Of a stretch of 64,000 bases of DNA, positions 10,155-61,938 are shown one piece after another. Within the stretch, counting starts at the first letter, position 1. Each line of letters opens with the position of its first letter. The translations under genes were made by a program, and so were the position numbers. The notes beneath the pieces were generated by a model. It was given only the letters and a program-made list of their open reading frames with translations, did no database searches and was not told where the DNA came from. Location: contig CAYQPN010000004.1 of assembly GCA_964419675.1 (NCBI GenBank), positions 11,001 through 75,000 of the forward strand, given 5' to 3'. Origin of the DNA: an uncultured Candidatus Saccharibacteria bacterium (lineage in GTDB: Bacteria; Patescibacteriota; Saccharimonadia; Saccharimonadales; SZUA-47).

Positions 10155-10309
10155 TGGAGGGCCCGATGAGACTCGGTCACCTCTGGCGACCCCTAAACTA
10201 CATTTTTCAAAACAAGTTTTGAAGAGTAGGTTTCCTTGCGAAATGCCACCGGCATTTCTCACTCATGACACCGAATGTGTCGTGACTTGAATCTCATCTG
10301 GAGTCGACC
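10155..10309 (-). repeat. Family A element, copy 1: 5'-truncated tRNA-Lys copy with an 85-nt three-hairpin module in its T-loop
   Basis: Segment 10155-10175 equals the tRNA-Lys 3' 21 nt (21/21). Segment 10261-10272 equals the tRNA variable loop plus 5' T-stem (12/12). The module at 10176-10260 is shared with the copies at 31837, 38975 and 39228. Confidence 0.75.
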
Positions 10310-10337
10310 AAAAATAAAACCGTCCTTTTGGGACGGT
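10310..10337 (-). terminator. Rho-independent terminator directly after tRNA-Lys
   Basis: The stem ACCGTCC/GGACGGT is followed on the minus strand by TTTTATTTTT. Confidence 0.75.
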
Positions 10338-10345
10338 GCTATTTT

Positions 10346-24048: not shown

Positions 24049-24080
24049 TAAACTTATTGTACCAGTAAAATATCTGTAAG

Positions 24081-24131
24081 TTAGTCACGTTTTAGTAAAA
24101 CGGTGAAGGCCTCGGCCGGTAGGTCTACTTT
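24081..24131 (-). repeat. Displaced duplicate of the lepA 3' end (last 16 codons plus stop)
   Basis: It matches 24218-24268 at 50 of 51 positions. The single difference is a synonymous Thr codon change (ACC versus ACA). Confidence 0.9.
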
Positions 24132-24217
24132 ATCAGAGTATAAGACACCCCTTCGGGGTTTCTCATCACGCAGGCCACGGAATAAATCCGATGGTCTGGC
24201 TGCTCTTCCCGAAGCAG
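24132..24217 (-). repeat. Family B element, minus orientation, between the two lepA 3'-end copies
   Basis: The minus strand reads GGGAAGAGCAGCCAGACCATCGGATTTATTCCGTGGCCTGCGTGATGAGAAACCCCGAAGGGGTGTC. Confidence 0.75.
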
Positions 24218-25999
24218 TTAGTCACGTTTTAGTAAAACTGTGAAGGCCTCGGCCGGTAGGTCTACTTTGCCGAACTTTTTAAGGCGTTCTTTACCTTTTT
24301 TCTGCTTGGCTAGAACTTTCTTTTTTCTAGATACATCACCACCGTATAACCCAGTTGTTACGTCTTTTCTGAAGGCGCTAATGTCCTCTCGTGCAATAAA
24401 TTTACCGCCCAATGCGGCCTGAACCGCCACTTGAAAGTTTTGACGCGGTATAACGTCTTTCAGCTTCTTGACAACGTCTCGTCCAACGCTGTTGGCTTCA
24501 CTTCTATGAACCATAATACTTAGAGCATCAACTCTGTCGCCCGCAACGTAAAAATCAAGCTTTACCAAATCTTCTACTCTATAGTTATCTAGCTCGTAAT
24601 TAAAACTGCCATATCCGCTTGTTAGACTTTTTAATTGGTCATAAAAATCTGTTAACAGGTTGGCAAGCGGTGCCTCAAAAGTAACAAGCGCCAATTGTGC
24701 ATCTACATAGCCTAGATTTTTTTGTAAACCTCGTTTACTAACAATCAACTGAATAATAGCCCCAACATATTCTTTGGGACAAACCACTTCACCTTTAATC
24801 CATGGTTCACGAATCTCGGTAATTTTACTTACGTCCGGCAAACTACTGGCTGATTTAACATCAATTTCTTCTCCGCTACTCAGTAAAACTTCATAGTCCG
24901 TGCTGGGATTTGTTACTACTAAATCAAGGTTATACTCTCGCTCTAAACGCTCTTTAATAATGTCCATGTGGAGCAACCCTAAGAAACCAATGCGAATCCC
25001 GAAGCCTAAAACTGGTGAATTTTCTGGCTCGTATTGCAAAGCAGAATCACTCAAACTTAATCTGTCAATCGCCTCTTTAAGGGCGATGTAATTTTCGTTA
25101 CTATCTGGGAAAAACCCGGCATACACAAAAGGCTTAACGATTTTATAGCCGGCAAGAGCTTCAACAGCAGGAGCGTTGGTTAGAGTTACGGTGTCACCAA
25201 CTCGAGCTTCGCGGGTGCTTTTCAAGTTAGTTACAATATATCCAATCTCCCCTGTTTTTAAGTCTGTATTGGCCTTCATATCTGGGCGTAATGCACCCAC
25301 TTCTAGCGCAAGTCCATTAGTGTTGGAGCTAATCATATGAATTCCGGCGCCTTTTTGGACATGACCGTCAATGATACGCACGTAGAGAATAACTCCACGG
25401 TAATCGTCATAGTAGCTATCAAAAATTAGACCTCTGGTTGGCTTGTCACTAGTACCTTTTGGCTCTGGTACAAGTGCAATTACACTGTCCAGAACTGATT
25501 CAATACCAATCCCGGTTTTTGCACTTATCAGCAATATATCTTCTTTTTTGCATCCAAGCAGGGAAATAACTTCTGAACTTACACGCTCTACGTCAGCGGC
25601 CGGCAAATCGATTTTATTTAGAACAGGAATAATCGTTAAGTCGGCTGCAATTGCTAGATAAACATTGGCTAGAGTCTGCGCCTGAATGCCTTGAGAAGCA
25701 TCAACAACTAAAATTGCGCCCTCGCAAGCCTCAAGGCTTCGCGATACTTCATAGCTGAAATCCACATGACCTGGAGTATCAATCAAGTTCAGCTCGTAGC
25801 CTTTATAGTCCATTCTTACCGGCGCTAGTTTAATGGTAATTCCCTTTTCGCGCTCCAAATCCATTTTGTCTAGCATCTGTGCTTTCATATCGCGCTTTTG
25901 CACAGTTCCGGTAATTTCCAATAGCCGGTCAGCCAAAGTAGACTTACCATGATCGATATGCGCAATAATGCAGAAATTTCTAATTTTTTCTTGACTCAT
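24218..25999 (-). CDS. lepA: Translation elongation factor 4 (LepA)
   Basis: It has the GTPase motifs IIAHIDHGKST and DTPGHVDF and the LepA-specific C-terminal domain. Confidence 0.97.
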   Translation of the reverse strand: MSQEKIRNFCIIAHIDHGKSTLADRLLEITGTVQKRDMKAQMLDKMDLEREKGITIKLAPVRMDYKGYELNLIDTPGHVDFSYEVSRSLEACEGAILVVDASQGIQAQTLANVYLAIAADLTIIPVLNKIDLPAADVERVSSEVISLLGCKKEDILLISAKTGIGIESVLDSVIALVPEPKGTSDKPTRGLIFDSYYDDYRGVILYVRIIDGHVQKGAGIHMISSNTNGLALEVGALRPDMKANTDLKTGEIGYIVTNLKSTREARVGDTVTLTNAPAVEALAGYKIVKPFVYAGFFPDSNENYIALKEAIDRLSLSDSALQYEPENSPVLGFGIRIGFLGLLHMDIIKERLEREYNLDLVVTNPSTDYEVLLSSGEEIDVKSASSLPDVSKITEIREPWIKGEVVCPKEYVGAIIQLIVSKRGLQKNLGYVDAQLALVTFEAPLANLLTDFYDQLKSLTSGYGSFNYELDNYRVEDLVKLDFYVAGDRVDALSIMVHRSEANSVGRDVVKKLKDVIPRQNFQVAVQAALGGKFIAREDISAFRKDVTTGLYGGDVSRKKKVLAKQKKGKERLKKFGKVDLPAEAFTVLLKRD

Positions 26000-31274: not shown

Positions 31275-31825
31275 AACACTTATACTTCGTTAGGCATGGT
31301 GAGAGCGTATTTAACGTAAAGGGTGTGGCCGCGGGGACATCTAACACACCACTTACCCCCAATGGAAAGGCCCAGGCAACTGCCCTTGGTAAAAAATTAC
31401 GCGACCAAGGAATTGTTTTTGACGTCGTATTAAGTTCACCGCTTGAAAGAGCCCACCATACTGCTTTGGAAATAGCTATGCACACAAATTATCCTACCCA
31501 CTTGATAGAACTAAATAATGACTTAGTGGAACGAAATTTCGGAGACATGGAGGCTAAAAGTCTTACTGCTGACTTTGGAATAACTGGTGAAGAATACCAA
31601 ACTAACCCCTTTTCAATCGACCATATCCCAAATGTTGAGAAAATAACCGATCTTCAATACCGAGCAAATAAAGTTTTAGAATACCTGCGCTCGCGTCCAG
31701 AAGACACGATATTGGTTGTTGGGCACGGTGCGTTTGCCCGTTCTTTGCAAAGAGCAATTATAAACGCCCCACTTACTGAGCCTGTGAGGACGCTTAATAA
31801 CGCCGAACTAGTGAAGCTGATTTAG
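31271..31825 (+). CDS. Histidine phosphatase family protein (phosphoglycerate mutase-like)
   Basis: It has the RHGES motif (LYFVRHGES) and a later VVGHGA motif. Confidence 0.85.
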   Translation: MKHLYFVRHGESVFNVKGVAAGTSNTPLTPNGKAQATALGKKLRDQGIVFDVVLSSPLERAHHTALEIAMHTNYPTHLIELNNDLVERNFGDMEAKSLTADFGITGEEYQTNPFSIDHIPNVEKITDLQYRANKVLEYLRSRPEDTILVVGHGAFARSLQRAIINAPLTEPVRTLNNAELVKLI

Positions 31826-31962
31826 GGTGAGATTTGCCCACGTTCCGCGGGCCCAGAATTTTCATGCGTCGAACAAGTTCGACCCTGAAAAGTTCTCTTG
31901 CGAAATGCCACTGGCATTTCTCACTCGCGACTTTTCGGCGTTCAAATTTACTACTAGTTACC
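31825..31962 (-). repeat. Family A element, copy 2 (downstream of tRNA-Met; 3' tRNA-like end truncated at a CDS stop)
   Basis: The module is at 31837-31922. ACTCGCGAC (31923-31931) equals the tRNA 5' T-stem region at 32019-32027. GTGAGATTTG (31827-31836) equals tRNA positions 32008-32017. Confidence 0.7.
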
Positions 31963-31996
31963 AAAATAAAATCACCCTAGAAGGGTGACCTTATTT

Positions 31997-34682: not shown

Positions 34683-34811
34683 GTAGCCAAACCAGCATAA
34701 AGGCGAAAAGCCTCTAGTGTTTGTGTCCACCCAAGGCGGATCGAGTATGCACCGACTGCGCATCTCAAGATTTCTCAAGAATTTCTCAGCTTCCCGACTA
34801 TAATAAGTACT

Positions 34812-38896: not shown

Positions 38897-38930
38897 AGAA
38901 TAAAGTCTCACATTTATGTGGGGCTTTTTT

Positions 38931-39083
38931 CTTGGTAATGTGCCAAGGCTAGAGCCTGGCCTAAGGTCACAGGTGAAAAGTGCCATTCGGCACTTTGCAA
39001 GAGAATCTTTCAGTATACAAACTTGTTTGTAACTTGAAAGTTCTGGGCCCGCGGCACGTGGGCGAGTCCTGGTCCCGCTACCA
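38931..39083 (+). repeat. Family A element, copy 3: 5'-truncated tRNA-fMet-like copy with an 88-nt module in its T-loop
   Basis: Segment 39063-39083 equals the tRNA 3' 21 nt (21/21). Segment 38964-38974 equals the tRNA variable loop plus 5' T-stem (10/11). The module is at 38975-39062. A pseudo-anticodon arm, AGGCT-AGAGCCT-GGCCT, is at 38946-38962, and its own terminator is at 39094-39121. Confidence 0.75.
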
Positions 39084-39206
39084 AAATAAATAACTCACCC
39101 TCGCGGTGGGTTTTTTATTTTAATATCGAGAGTCATGACTCGAACCTGACAGCCCGCTCTAGGCGGGCAGGTTCGCTAATTCCCCGTCCACCAATGGTGG
39201 ACAAAC

Positions 39207-39326
39207 TGGCGAATTACCATCTTTCCTGGCCACATTCTGCGGCCCCGAAACTTCATGACAGAAAACTAGTTTTCTTCAGAAGATTTCCTTGCAATGAGCC
39301 ACTGGCTCATTTCACCCGCTACCAAG
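39207..39326 (-). repeat. Family A module, copy 4 (inverted relative to copy 3), flanked by a third partial copy of the tRNA-fMet 3' end
   Basis: The module at 39228-39314 aligns over its full length with the other copies and has covarying stems. CCCGCTACCAAG (39315-39326) equals tRNA-fMet 38887-38898. Confidence 0.65.
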
Positions 39327-39384
39327 CATAAGAAATACAGCTTCCGAAAGGAAGTCATTTCTATTTGTTTGATATGATGAGGGT

Positions 39385-43273: not shown

Positions 43274-43720
43274 TTAGTTTCCGAAATAGATGTTAAACCA
43301 GGCTTCTAGATTTTGTTGGTATTGGGGCTTCGATACCGTTTCATTTTCCTCACTTGGGGCTACTTCTGGTGTGCTTAGCGCGTTCAGCGCAACCTCTTTG
43401 GGTACAATATATACTTTCTCGCCTGGAGACGCTTTACCAAACACCCTTCTTGCTGTTAATTCGGCAAATTCATTGGTCTTTAAGTATTCGTTTTGCAATT
43501 CTTTATTACGGTTTTCAAGTTCCAATATTTTATTTTCTTCTTCAATCTTGGCAACTTTTTGAGCCAATTCATAATTCTGTTGAACAATTTTTGAACCGTT
43601 CCAAAACACGCTTAATGCTACAAAACCAACCAAGCCTAAAGCCAACAGTCTAGCGTCATATAGCCCTTTGTCTGTAAGCCTTTTTCTGAGACTGTAAAAT
43701 TTTTGTTGGAAAAAATCCAT
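43274..43720 (-). CDS. Septum formation initiator family protein (FtsB/DivIC-like)
   Basis: It has a single TM followed by a coiled coil (QNYELAQKVAKIEEENKILELENRNKELQNE). Confidence 0.7.
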   Translation of the reverse strand: MDFFQQKFYSLRKRLTDKGLYDARLLALGLVGFVALSVFWNGSKIVQQNYELAQKVAKIEEENKILELENRNKELQNEYLKTNEFAELTARRVFGKASPGEKVYIVPKEVALNALSTPEVAPSEENETVSKPQYQQNLEAWFNIYFGN

Positions 43721-43768
43721 ATCTCTATAATTTTACACTAAAAAACCGACATTAGGTCGGTTCTTAAA

Positions 43769-43896
43769 TGGTGGGGGTACCTGGACTTGTCATAATTTGC
43801 TCGCTCGAGAGCGCAAGCGCATCTCGCTCAGCCAAGCACAGAAAACTCATCCGCCTTGGGCGGATTCGACCCAAGGGTTCAAATCTTCTACAACCT
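43769..43896 (-). repeat. Divergent family A-like element downstream of tRNA-Ile2, ending in a duplicate of the tRNA 3' 21 nt
   Basis: Segment 43769-43789 equals 43934-43954 (21/21, C56 to CCA). The interior has a GAGA-GCG-CTTG-CGC-TCTC hairpin and a T-arm-like CCTTGGG-TCGAATCCG-CCCAAGG. Its own terminator is at 43739-43762. Confidence 0.6.
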
Positions 43897-43933
43897 CAAA
43901 TAAAAACAAACTCCAGTGGAGCTTGTTTTTATT

Positions 43934-44628
43934 TGGTGGGGGTACCTGGACTTGAACCAGGGACCAATCGGTTATGCGTACCACTACAGCTTTTGCTGCC
44001 TCTTTCGTGTTTGTGGTCTGGACTGTCTCTTTATCCGCGTATTTGCGGATACTTGCCATACAGTCTCTACACCTTACCAGCTTTTTTATAAACTGGGCTT
44101 GGCTCGGGATTACCACTCAGCCAGTTGGCGGATAGAGGCTTCCCCGAATTTGACAAGATATACTTACTGGTTACCCATGTAAGCAGCCCTTTAACTTTTT
44201 GACTTATCTATAGTATACTTCGGTTATGAAGAACAGGTCTAACTGTGCCGTGTGTAATAAAATTCTATCCGGCAAACAAACATTGTTCTGCTCCGTGAAA
44301 TGTAAAAATACACAGCACCAATCATACCCTGCTCAAAAAAAGCGCGGATTAAATCGAAAACTCTATTTTATAAGAGAGTTAGGAGGAAAATGTTCTATCT
44401 GCGGATATGCAAAAAATATTTCTGCACTGGCATTTCACCACATACACGGTAAAGAATTTCAACTAGATGTTCGTGCACTATCAAACCGTAAAATTGAACC
44501 TATACTTGAAGAGGTCGCAAAATGTAAGTTATTGTGCAATAACTGCCACGCTGAAATTCATAACCCAAATCTAGACTTAGCCAAATTGTTAATTGAGCCG
44601 ACTGCTCTAACCACTGAGCTATACCCCC
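43934..44628 (-). tRNA. tRNA-Ile2-like (anticodon CAU) interrupted by a group I intron in the anticodon loop
   Basis: Exon 1 (44628-44596) reads GGGGGTATAGCTCAGTGGTTAGAGCAGTCGGCT. Exon 2 (43976-43934) reads CATAACCGATTGGTCCCTGGTTCAAGTCCAGGTACCCCCACCA. Joined, they form a perfect cloverleaf closely resembling E. coli tRNA-Ile2. Confidence 0.88.
43977..44595 (-). mobile_element. Group I intron (IC3-like core) in the tRNA anticodon loop
   Basis: The minus strand contains GTCAAATTCGGGGAAGCC, CCCGAGCCAAGCCC and AAGGTGTAGAGACTGTATGGCA. These match P3/P7-region strings of the Azoarcus tRNA-Ile intron as I recall it. The 5' exon ends in U and the intron ends in G. Confidence 0.8.
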
Positions 44629-44642
44629 GTGATATTTCATAG
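44226..44642 (+). CDS. HNH endonuclease (putative homing endonuclease) encoded antisense to the intron
   Basis: It has CAVC...C..C and CSICG...AFHHIHG...N...LLCNNCHAEIHN (HNH with two CxxC pairs). The last ~15 codons run antisense through tRNA exon 1. A possible leaderless promoter is TTAACT-17-TATACT at 44191-44219. Confidence 0.85.
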   Translation: MKNRSNCAVCNKILSGKQTLFCSVKCKNTQHQSYPAQKKRGLNRKLYFIRELGGKCSICGYAKNISALAFHHIHGKEFQLDVRALSNRKIEPILEEVAKCKLLCNNCHAEIHNPNLDLAKLLIEPTALTTELYPRDIS

Positions 44643-56025: not shown

Positions 56026-56065
56026 TATACACATATTATACGCTATAGCGTATAATATGTGTATA
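56026..56065. repeat. Perfect 40-bp palindrome (copy 2 of 4), overlapping the divergent promoter region
   Basis: It reads TATACACATATTATACGCTA|TAGCGTATAATATGTGTATA. TATAAT at 56051-56056 lies 33 nt upstream of the 56090 ATG, and a mirrored TATAAT on the minus strand faces the mazG-like operon. Confidence 0.95.
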
Positions 56066-56686: not shown

Positions 56687-56710
56687 AGCTCTTTCTTAAC
56701 GATCCACTAA

Positions 56711-56746
56711 TACACATATTATACGCTATAGCGTATAATATGTGTA
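56711..56746. repeat. Perfect 36-bp palindrome (copy 3 of 4) between convergent genes
   Basis: It reads TACACATATTATACGCTA|TAGCGTATAATATGTGTA, starting 25 nt after the stop of 56090-56686. Confidence 0.95.
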
Positions 56747-61703: not shown

Positions 61704-61902
61704 GATTCTATCCTCAAATTTAGTTTGTAATTGTTCGGCTTTTTCGACGGGTCTTTTGCCAAGTAAGAAGTAGCTCGCCAAAAACTACCGGCGGACCCGA
61801 CTATTCATATTATTTTGCACGACAATTGTTTTCACTCCTGTTATTGTACCATCAACCGGATATAACTAGTGCAAATTTCAGCATTCTAGCATAAGAACTA
61901 CC

Positions 61903-61938
61903 TACACATATTATACGCTATAGCGTATAATATGTGTA
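61903..61938. repeat. Perfect 36-bp palindrome (copy 4 of 4) between the CNNM-family gene stop and aspS
   Basis: It reads TACACATATTATACGCTA|TAGCGTATAATATGTGTA. Confidence 0.95.

Follow-up and report, generated by a model that had tools for sequence, protein, structure and literature searches.

We describe a class of short, non-coding cassettes that stand beside tRNA genes in Saccharibacteria, as seen at the gene for tRNA-Ile2 in a 64-kb stretch of DNA (the window) from this group of the candidate phyla radiation (CPR). The 3' end of tRNA-Ile2 recurs exactly at 43769-43789, downstream of the intact gene. On balance, we favour reading this 21-mer as the tail of a partial, non-functional copy of tRNA-Ile2, belonging to a class of tRNA-specific, miniature, non-autonomous mobile elements of Saccharibacteria. 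The cassettes share an anatomy and a precise junction in the T loop, occur at many tRNA genes, and are present in some genomes and absent from the same site in relatives. Elements of one family, family A, move between tRNA isotypes.

tRNA genes are classic landing sites of large integrating elements; here, gene-less elements of ~80-90 nt would use the same gene-saving trick, duplicating the tail or head of the gene, and at many isotypes. Additionally, a widespread and strongly covarying motif extends the short list of non-coding elements in CPR bacteria, and may explain many of the tRNA fragments met by tRNA finders and annotators in these genomes. Because the cassettes appear to provide tRNA-gene terminators, they are probably now part of the signals of gene expression. 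They also offer a testable system for the tolerance of selfish DNA by tiny genomes, and for tRNA structure as a target of mobility.

The partial copy downstream of tRNA-Ile2

The functional tRNA-Ile2(CAU) gene lies on the minus strand. Its 5' exon (positions 1-33, GGGGGTATAGCTCAGTGGTTAGAGCAGTCGGCT; 44596-44628) and its 3' exon (positions 34-76, ending in CCA; 43934-43976) are separated by a group I intron, inserted after U33 and before C34 (43977-44595; Rfam RF00028, 76.4 bits; catalytic core 44004-44211). Read from the sequence, the terminal base of the 5' exon is U and that of the intron is G. The joined exons give a 76-nt tRNA(CAU) in agreement with intron-less 76-nt orthologues in L003-L030 (anticodon at position 34; L-numbers denote the related loci or contigs compared with the window), and orthologous tRNA-Ile2 introns are present in L021 and L006. 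Its identity as Ile2 follows by elimination, as the window also contains initiator and elongator tRNA-Met. ARAGORN did not detect the gene because of the intron.

The sequence TGGTGGGGGTACCTGGACTTG forms the last 21 nt of the 3' exon (43934-43954) and stands again at 43769-43789, an exact 21/21 repeat at an offset of 165 nt. Its minus-strand reading is CAAGTCCAGGTACCCCCACCA, that is, C56 to A76 of tRNA-Ile2, and it stretches to 30 nt at 90% identity (repeat family D12). The initial annotation of this DNA, made by eye from the sequence, had described the same exact duplicate of the C56-CCA end, and the sequence bears it out. Only four places in the window have a 21-mer recurring within 400 nt, and three of the four are tRNA 3' ends (Lys, fMet and Ile2), which excludes chance as the source of the Ile2 repeat. 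An assembly artefact is likewise excluded, because L001, assembled independently from a different sample, has the arrangement unchanged and 99.98% identity over the Ile2 locus. Contigs of the same strain (L001 and L002) were uninformative about polymorphism.

Between the functional gene and the second tail copy lies a non-coding cassette of 145 bp, read here on the minus strand. At its left end stands a terminator-like hairpin with A-tract and T-tract arms (43897-43933), which folds into a 16-bp perfect stem at 43899-43933 and can be extended by inspection through pairing of the CA of CCA with TG. This hairpin is predicted to end the functional tRNA-Ile2 transcript; a long hairpin of the same CCA...TGG type also directly follows the intact tRNA in the Lys, Met, fMet and metagenomic modules. 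The linker, or 'left arm', comes next (43873-43896), an inverted T-arm-like stretch consisting of AGGTTGTAGAAGATTTGAACCC and then TT, which by analogy may be the equivalent of the inverted T-arm-like linkers in family A modules. Alignment with one L030 module (module a) and with family A modules suggests that the GGGT at 43869-43872 is a pseudo T-stem 5' strand plus T54, marking the left junction of the element. The element itself (43790-43868) is a structured stretch of 79 nt, delimited by two homologues in L030 and a consensus fold, which we call family B. It adjoins C56 of the second tail copy (43769-43789), the pseudo 3' end that runs from C56 to CCA; the Ile2 pseudo-copy contains positions 56-76 only.

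A second terminator-like hairpin, AACCGAC-CTAAT-GTCGGTT with six T (43740-43762), follows the second tail copy and lies upstream of a DivIC-like gene. Each copy thus has a terminator-like hairpin of its own, as first noted. A simple consensus terminator scan flagged neither, the first because its T run sits within the stem and the second because just four T are left beyond the longest stem. The whole Ile2 module folds at z = -5.0, and its parts follow the order of the cassette class: terminator, linker, pseudo T-stem 5' strand, core at 55/56, tail and second terminator.

Family B is known from three copies of about 80 nt, the one at Ile2 and two in L030, a Saccharibacteria metagenome-assembled genome (MAG) with 58% Dus identity. 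Both L030 homologues adjoin C56 of tRNA-fMet tails, and one aligns with the Ile2 element over its entire length. The order of parts is an H1-like hairpin (GAATCCGCC-CAA-GGCGGAT), GAG, a 9-nt spacer TTTTCTGTG, CTTGGCTGAGCGAG, a hairpin (ATGCGC-TTG-GCGC) and TCTCGAGCGAGCAAATTATGA. The central hairpin shows compensatory changes across the three copies (CATGCG/CGCATG, CGTGCG/CGCACG and ATGCGC/GCGC). The distinct core of the Ile2 element is CTTGGCTGAGCGAG-hairpin-GAGCGAGCAAATTATGA, and the first hairpin and GAG that precede it are as in family A.

The interior had been described as not aligning with family A. Against the family A covariance model R1 it indeed reaches only 7.5 bits (E = 1) and does not match; however, it is not wholly foreign, as it has homologues in L030 and shares with family A the H1-like hairpin, the GAG that follows and the cassette layout, though nothing else. 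The hairpin with a CTTG loop is present as claimed. A CCTTGGG/CCCAAGG hairpin is present too, but its reading as a T arm gives way to the GGGT pseudo T-stem strand together with the first hairpin of the element. CCCAAGGCGGAT does recur at 34727, though no more often than chance would allow: shared 12-mers number 2, against 0.6 in shuffles (P about 0.14).

Family A elements and their sites in tRNA pseudo-copies

All four tRNA genes of the window (Lys, elongator Met, fMet and Ile2) have a downstream module. The modules at Lys, Met and fMet comprise the long hairpin that pairs CCA with TGG, a linker, a copy of the cognate variable loop and T-stem 5' strand, a family A element of ~88 nt, the cognate C56-CCA tail and a second terminator. 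From this order we conclude that the downstream repeat closes an incomplete tRNA copy, which spans positions ~41-76 and is interrupted by the element in its T loop. The tRNA-Lys module (10155-10345, minus strand) has the terminator, the linker, GGTGTCATGAGT (positions 44-54) and family A, with the 21-nt C56-CCA copy at 10155-10175 (repeat family D15). The covariance model places family A with a decayed 3'-end copy at elongator tRNA-Met (31815-31996, minus strand), and family A with a 21-nt copy at 39063-39083 (repeat family D5) at tRNA-fMet (38897-39083, plus strand). The repeat boundary at C56 reported for Lys and fMet is therefore the same as at Ile2, with 21/21 tails at both. By sequence and covariance model, a second tRNA-fMet module (39084-39330, plus strand) carries a different element, family C, followed by a third partial fMet 3' end (CCTGG...CCCGCTACCA), which is itself split by a reverse-oriented family A element (39207-39325, minus strand).

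Family A, the commoner element, is ~88 nt long as captured by model R1 and forms three hairpins. In the window the model matches only these four copies, each at a tRNA locus; it also finds family A in six Saccharibacteria MAG loci, and a validated sequence pattern finds at least 120 metagenomic stretches with family A, on contigs without a taxonomic label. Statistics on the family refer to 133 aligned copies in 100 loci, among the matches listed, the true total being at least 133. The four window copies suffice for compensatory changes in 16 of 31 pairs. Across the 133 copies, both sides have changed in 25 of the 31, and standard pairing holds in 97.1% of pair cells, compared with 27-58% when partners are slid. 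The three forward copies of the window are mutually 59-78% identical, and every one folds. One G.U pair is almost invariant (120/127), which indicates that the constraint works on one strand.

No Rfam 15 model matches any module at gathering or lenient thresholds (E up to 10), and the sole intron or ribozyme match is the separate group I intron in the Ile2 anticodon loop. The literature that we covered in part, on tRNAs and structured RNAs of Saccharibacteria and Patescibacteria and on insertions in bacterial tRNA genes, holds no description of such elements. The tRNA-tail element family is thus apparently undescribed so far.

This degree of constraint could mean that the modules are small RNA (sRNA) genes useful to the host, each with a structured core, a cognate C56-CCA tail and its own terminator, kept beside the tRNA by selection. 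Such RNAs might, for example, take part in the processing or quality control of tRNAs, or divert tRNA-binding factors as decoys, with concerted evolution keeping the repeat identical. Very strong covariation and a conserved G.U pair do point to selection on one strand, and the orientation, almost always that of the tRNA, the terminator that each module brings along and the retained fold of window copies only 59-78% identical are all in keeping with it. We nevertheless regard host-useful sRNA genes as an unlikely explanation, given that the distribution is patchy with empty sites in close relatives, that unrelated cargos occupy the same tRNA in different genomes, that near-identical copies occur at differing isotypes and positions, that 3' tails have decayed at several loci, and that reverse-oriented and nested copies exist.

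The favoured reading, a mobile cassette in a redundant tRNA copy, draws on where the elements sit. Family A lies exactly between T54 and position 55 of the T loop. At the foot of its third hairpin, two G form pairs with C56 and with position 55, the latter being U in 37 copies and C in 84. It also occurs within D loops and D arms of pseudo-copies; a tRNA-Leu(CAG) pseudo-copy has one family A element in each of the two arms, and several D-arm insertions fall in the D stem. T-loop sites have GGT^ in common; D-arm sites differ. The family is present at 13 isotypes or more, and its orientation is nearly always that of the tRNA, although reverse-oriented and nested copies exist.

Two layouts recur among the copies listed. 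An intact tRNA on the same strand ends 70-90 nt upstream of family A in 51 cases, as in the window, and in these downstream pseudo-copies the 5' limit lies consistently near position 41-44. In 43 further cases an intact same-strand tRNA starts ~40-70 nt downstream of family A. This upstream layout comprises a pseudo-copy of positions 1-54, the element, positions 55 to ~63, a short promoter-like spacer and then the intact gene; as judged from sequence, the original promoter would drive the pseudo-copy.

When the element is deleted in silico, a complete tRNA results in one clear case out of 133 (L083), with a second, doubtful case in L043. Thus, family A is normally tolerated only in a redundant partial copy. 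The clear case (L083 1522-1641, minus strand) is a perfect tRNA-Ser(CGA) with a family A-type element in its T loop and no intact copy on the 2.8-kb contig. Either the element struck a dispensable isoacceptor not long ago, or the case hints that RNA can be freed of the element.

A reading of the modules as tRNA introns was rejected, with one complete interrupted copy among 133. Insertions in loops of stable RNAs are known as archaeal bulge-helix-bulge tRNA introns (in D and T loops), as 23S rRNA intervening sequences excised by RNase III, and as rRNA insertions in CPR bacteria. The cassettes resemble these in being structured, sense-oriented and sharp-ended inserts in the loop of a stable RNA. 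However, 132 of the 133 interrupted copies are incomplete and cannot yield a tRNA, an intact copy adjoins, and no splicing signal or ribozyme model matches.

Movement at the level of RNA is another way to account for the sites. Family A and B cores, possibly ribozymes, would insert into folded tRNA or pre-tRNA at the elbow of D loop and T loop, and partial reverse transcripts begun at the 3' end and stopping in the anticodon or variable region would yield genomic copies of positions ~41-76. If true, bacteria would have their own version of intron retro-homing, with tRNA tertiary structure as its specific target. We keep an RNA-mediated route in view because sense orientation is constant and the target sites (T54/55 and the D loop or arm), distant in sequence, adjoin only in the folded tRNA. 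The sharp element ends with no target duplication of their own, the consistent 5' limit of downstream pseudo-copies near 41-44, the conserved strand-specific G.U pair and the perfect tRNA-Ser(CGA) with its simple insertion (L083) also agree with it. We still consider this route quite improbable: the window showed no reverse transcriptase, the insertion point in several D arms is the stem and not the elbow, and no ribozyme family matches. Moreover, the duplicated unit of young modules (L033 and L129) includes the terminator, which suits DNA recombination or a primary-transcript template better than mature tRNA.

A reverse-transcription precedent exists in the Mauriceville and Varkud retroplasmids of Neurospora, which span several kb, encode their own reverse transcriptase and integrate at mitochondrial tRNA genes via tRNA-containing hybrid cDNAs. 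There, too, a small mobile replicon takes up copies of CCA-ending tRNA 3' parts, and its homologous recombination with the tRNA gene leaves flanking tRNA repeats. The cassettes differ in being under 200 bp, and no reverse transcriptase or plasmid was seen with them.

The linkers of family A modules are complementary to cognate positions ~41-60, the cognate tRNA ranking in the top 5% of 180 tRNAs for 30 of 43 linkers; complementarity to the acceptor part was found in 3 of 43. This specificity indicates that a local inverted duplication, or a selected helix, belongs to the cassette. A linker made as a full inverted copy of the tail (TGG plus acceptor, by fold-back synthesis at the terminator) was rejected on the same counts, 3/43 for the acceptor against 30/43 for ~41-60. 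A strong helix of the linker with both element flanks found weak support (z about -1).

Distribution, mobility and origin of the cassettes

The initial annotation had called the duplication general to tRNA genes, with varying cargo, and had proposed a survey of downstream duplicates. This survey was run on the related contigs, taking ARAGORN tRNA genes with at least 250 nt downstream and scoring anchored 3'-end copies of at least 10 nt within 700 nt. Such a copy follows 46 of 170 tRNA genes, with 51 repeats in all. The rate of 27% is biased upwards because most loci had been selected for family A; in the subset not chosen for family A (loci selected by Dus, and the window), 6 of 32 genes have one, plus the Ile2 gene itself. 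Generality therefore stands in a limited form: all four genes of the window and 46 of 170 in related contigs, but not every gene, with empty sites in relatives. The junction rule is unaffected by this selection bias.

Repeat length, supposed at first to be always 21 nt, is usually but not always so. Of 51 exact repeats, 20 measure 21 nt, 12 measure 22 nt, nine 17-19 nt, eight 10-13 nt, and two 23 or 25 nt, an overall range of 10-25 nt. Copies mostly end 170-205 nt past the gene and second copies ~345-375 nt past it, a tandem spacing of about 180 nt, and the cargos of dozens of loci fall in a narrow size range of ~150-185 nt. A C56 junction is found in 32 of the 51. A chance repeat, or local replication slippage without any element, would explain the existence of a short tandem-like duplication and nothing beyond it. 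We consider it exceedingly improbable, given the four places in 64 kb at which an exact 21-mer recurs within 400 nt, three of them tRNA tails, the recurrence of the C56 junction elsewhere, and the homologues of the Ile2 interior in another genome.

At the Ile2 site itself, relatives differ. Among the closest relatives, the site is empty in L003, L005, L023 and L030, as well as in the intron-containing L021 and L006. The 3' end of tRNA-Ile2 is identical in L005, L030, L021 and L006, and identical or almost so in the others; in L021 and L006 the spacer to the DivIC-like gene begins directly after CCA. The tRNA-Ile2 of L029 has a 21/21 repeat that encloses an unrelated cargo of 97 nt, and that of L013 is followed by two modules, of which the distal one belongs to family A. 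These differences between empty and filled sites indicate that cassettes are gained or lost on the time scale of genera.

Family A copies that are 95-98% identical occur in differing contexts, namely a Lys-type tail and a Val T loop, Ser and Glu, and a Leu D arm and a Val T loop. In such pairs similarity starts at GTGAGA and stops at GGTGAC or a few bases further on, in the 3' half of the T loop, which is conserved. Mean identity is 0.65 between copies at the same tRNA and 0.64 between copies at different tRNAs, and for 93 of 105 copies the nearest neighbour sits at a different tRNA. This absence of clustering by isotype argues against ancient vertical inheritance at each locus, and near-identical copies across isotypes and positions indicate that family A moves. 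One contig has three family A copies, 94-100% identical, with terminator and linker duplicated as well. The duplicated unit of the young modules L033 and L129 also takes in the terminator, and the repeat in L033 is ~56 nt.

Integrases that cross over in tRNA genes have been grouped by sublocation (Williams 2002, as cited in PMC9897764), and a relic of such an event deserves consideration. A phage, plasmid or island with a tyrosine integrase would have entered the T loop of tRNA-Ile2 with a C56-CCA end of its own, and would then have shrunk by deletions to 145 bp, leaving attL and attR. A T-loop crossover that duplicates the tRNA 3' end is a known integrase sublocation (the attP core of mycobacteriophage Ms6, PMC1762012), and integration generally leaves partial tRNA copies behind (PMC9897764). 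As in an att pair, the direct repeat at Ile2 reproduces the tRNA from within its T loop to the 3' end, and the gene itself stays whole. Elements of this kind likewise come to lie between an intact gene and a partial copy, and successive insertions build arrays.

Such a relic nonetheless appears quite unlikely to us. No integrase was found among the 30 window open reading frames (ORFs) scanned, which include the neighbours of the cassette; the one listed ORF of at least 90 aa that overlaps the interior (43768-44091, plus strand) runs through the tRNA 3' exon and intron. Cargo sizes are tightly held at ~150-185 nt in dozens of loci, and the cargos are conserved structured non-coding families common to at least 13 isotypes. 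The same element also occurs in D arms and in upstream pseudo-copies. Neither the Ile2 21-mer nor the family A pattern was found in IMG/VR viral contigs, which argues against an origin as phage attP. In contrast to T-loop integrative elements, the cassettes are 100-185 bp, non-coding and without an integrase found, have a mirror layout with an upstream interrupted copy, and place cores in D arms. Where one family per tRNA target would be expected of integrases, family A is at 13 or more isotypes and family B at both Ile2 and fMet.

We propose instead that the structured element is the moving part, and that it would enter the T loop between T54 and 55 or, rarely, the D arm. Insertion in a single-copy essential tRNA would be lethal, so that the element would persist only in a redundant partial copy beside an intact gene. 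The repeat begins at the right end of the element and runs for a variable distance, either 21 nt to CCA or ~56 nt through the terminator. The tandem layout could have arisen by a single homologous, Campbell-type crossover within this stretch of 21-56 nt, in which the chromosomal gene recombined with a small copy, excised or imported, of a tRNA segment invaded earlier. Crossing over to the right of the core would give an intact gene, terminator and interrupted tail; to the left, it would give the mirror layout of interrupted head, promoter and intact gene. We infer this scheme as the simplest to account for the two layouts and for repeats of variable length. The natural competence of Saccharibacteria (PMC10633639) would supply the imported DNA.

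Several observations weigh against this proposal. Among 30 window ORFs scanned, tRNA neighbours included, there was no integrase, recombinase, transposase or reverse transcriptase; neither a circle nor an excision product was observed; and at 165-190 bp a DNA circle would be a small substrate for Campbell-type crossing over. Long-term structural conservation, the strand-specific G.U pair and the constant sense orientation also suit a host-useful RNA. The pairing energy of linkers with the element flanks is just modestly better than that of shuffles (z about -1). At Ile2, the pseudo T-stem strand CCCTTGGGT matches positions 47-54 of tRNA-Ile2 (CCCTGGT) loosely, and mobility of family B is suggested by analogy with family A and by its association with two different tRNAs.

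Miniature inverted-repeat transposable elements (MITEs), REPINs and repeats of the BOX, RUP or Correia type are short, non-coding, multi-copy, hairpin-rich and intergenic, often stand beside terminators, and have modular variants. The cassettes are like them in these respects, size and copy number included. However, the ends GTGAGA... and ...GGTGAC are not mutual inverted copies as in MITEs, and there is no short target duplication of fixed length but a long repeat that varies from 21 to 56 nt. The cassettes also differ from all these repeats in being confined strictly to tRNA-derived sequence, with a precise T54/55 junction and a partial gene duplication that preserves the target.

Miniature derivatives of IS200/IS605 elements insert without target duplication and have strand-specific hairpins, and omega-RNAs join a scaffold to a flank of ~20 nt. 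All three features have a likeness in the cassettes. Their end hairpins, in contrast, do not resemble each other, D-arm sites lack a single constant tetra- or pentanucleotide as the left flank, the 30 window ORFs scanned include neither tnpA nor tnpB, and a guide equal to the tail would cut the neighbouring essential gene. A reading of core plus 21-mer as a TnpB-type guide RNA was rejected on the logic that such a guide would target the adjacent intact tRNA gene; no tnpB was seen in the window. As they lack the defining features of the integrase, MITE and intron classes, we class the elements as tRNA-specific cassettes, miniature and non-coding, which keep their target whole by duplicating part of it.

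Other cores and features of the window

Family C has a core of the form GTTCGCTAATTCCCCGTC-hairpin-...GGCGAATTACCATxTTT and was seen in the window (39084-39330), L008 (17150-17400) and L009 (9250-9500). It meets the tRNA-fMet tail at position 60/61, not at 55/56. In the window and L009 it is coupled with a reverse-oriented family A element beside TTGGTAGCGGG.

Variants of family A in L047 (3866-4499, minus), L043 (380-1300, minus), L038 (872-1130) and L102 (6126-6330) keep the first hairpin and GCAAGG, with the remaining two hairpins swapped for a larger domain (GCCGGAG...TTTTCAGCAGAAA...), which shows the cores to be modular. L043 also has three stacked tRNA-Gln pseudo-copies upstream of the intact gene. 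At L030 16293-16340 (minus), a perfect palindrome of 16 nt, TCCGCCAGCTGGCGGA, is inserted within a partial tRNA-fMet tail, where it separates the 3' strand of the T stem from the acceptor strand; a family B core immediately precedes it.

The group I intron of tRNA-Ile2 has an ORF of 138 aa on its antisense strand (44226-44642, plus), which overlaps the tRNA 5' exon. By eye it contains CxxC...HH...N...CxxCH motifs of the type typical of HNH homing endonucleases; it has no significant match in Pfam or NCBIfam. The L021 intron is of the long form, probably with the same antisense ORF, and that of L006 is short and without it.

The genes of the window are ordinary housekeeping genes, including those for DnaK, LepA, FtsH, MurJ, Pif1, a class II aminoacyl-tRNA synthetase (Pfam tRNA-synt_2) and Dus. 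Relatives of the Dus protein at 50-72% identity occur exclusively in Saccharibacteria or Patescibacteria MAGs. By Pfam, the neighbours of the Ile2 locus are the DivIC-like gene (43274-43720), a cupredoxin-like gene and the Dus gene.

A gene tail duplicated around a short structured insert also occurs at a protein-coding gene. On the minus strand, the final 53 nt of lepA, stop codon and all, stand twice, at 24079-24131 and 24216-24268; the duplicate lies 137 nt downstream and is 98% identical. The two copies enclose a hairpin-rich insert of 84 nt (24132-24215; -29.7 kcal/mol), of which there are no copies in the other loci. Finally, a perfect palindrome of 37 nt, ATACACATATTATACGCTATAGCGTATAATATGTGTA, unrelated to the tRNA cassettes, has four intergenic copies in the window (11215-11251, 56027-56063, 56710-56746 and 61902-61938).

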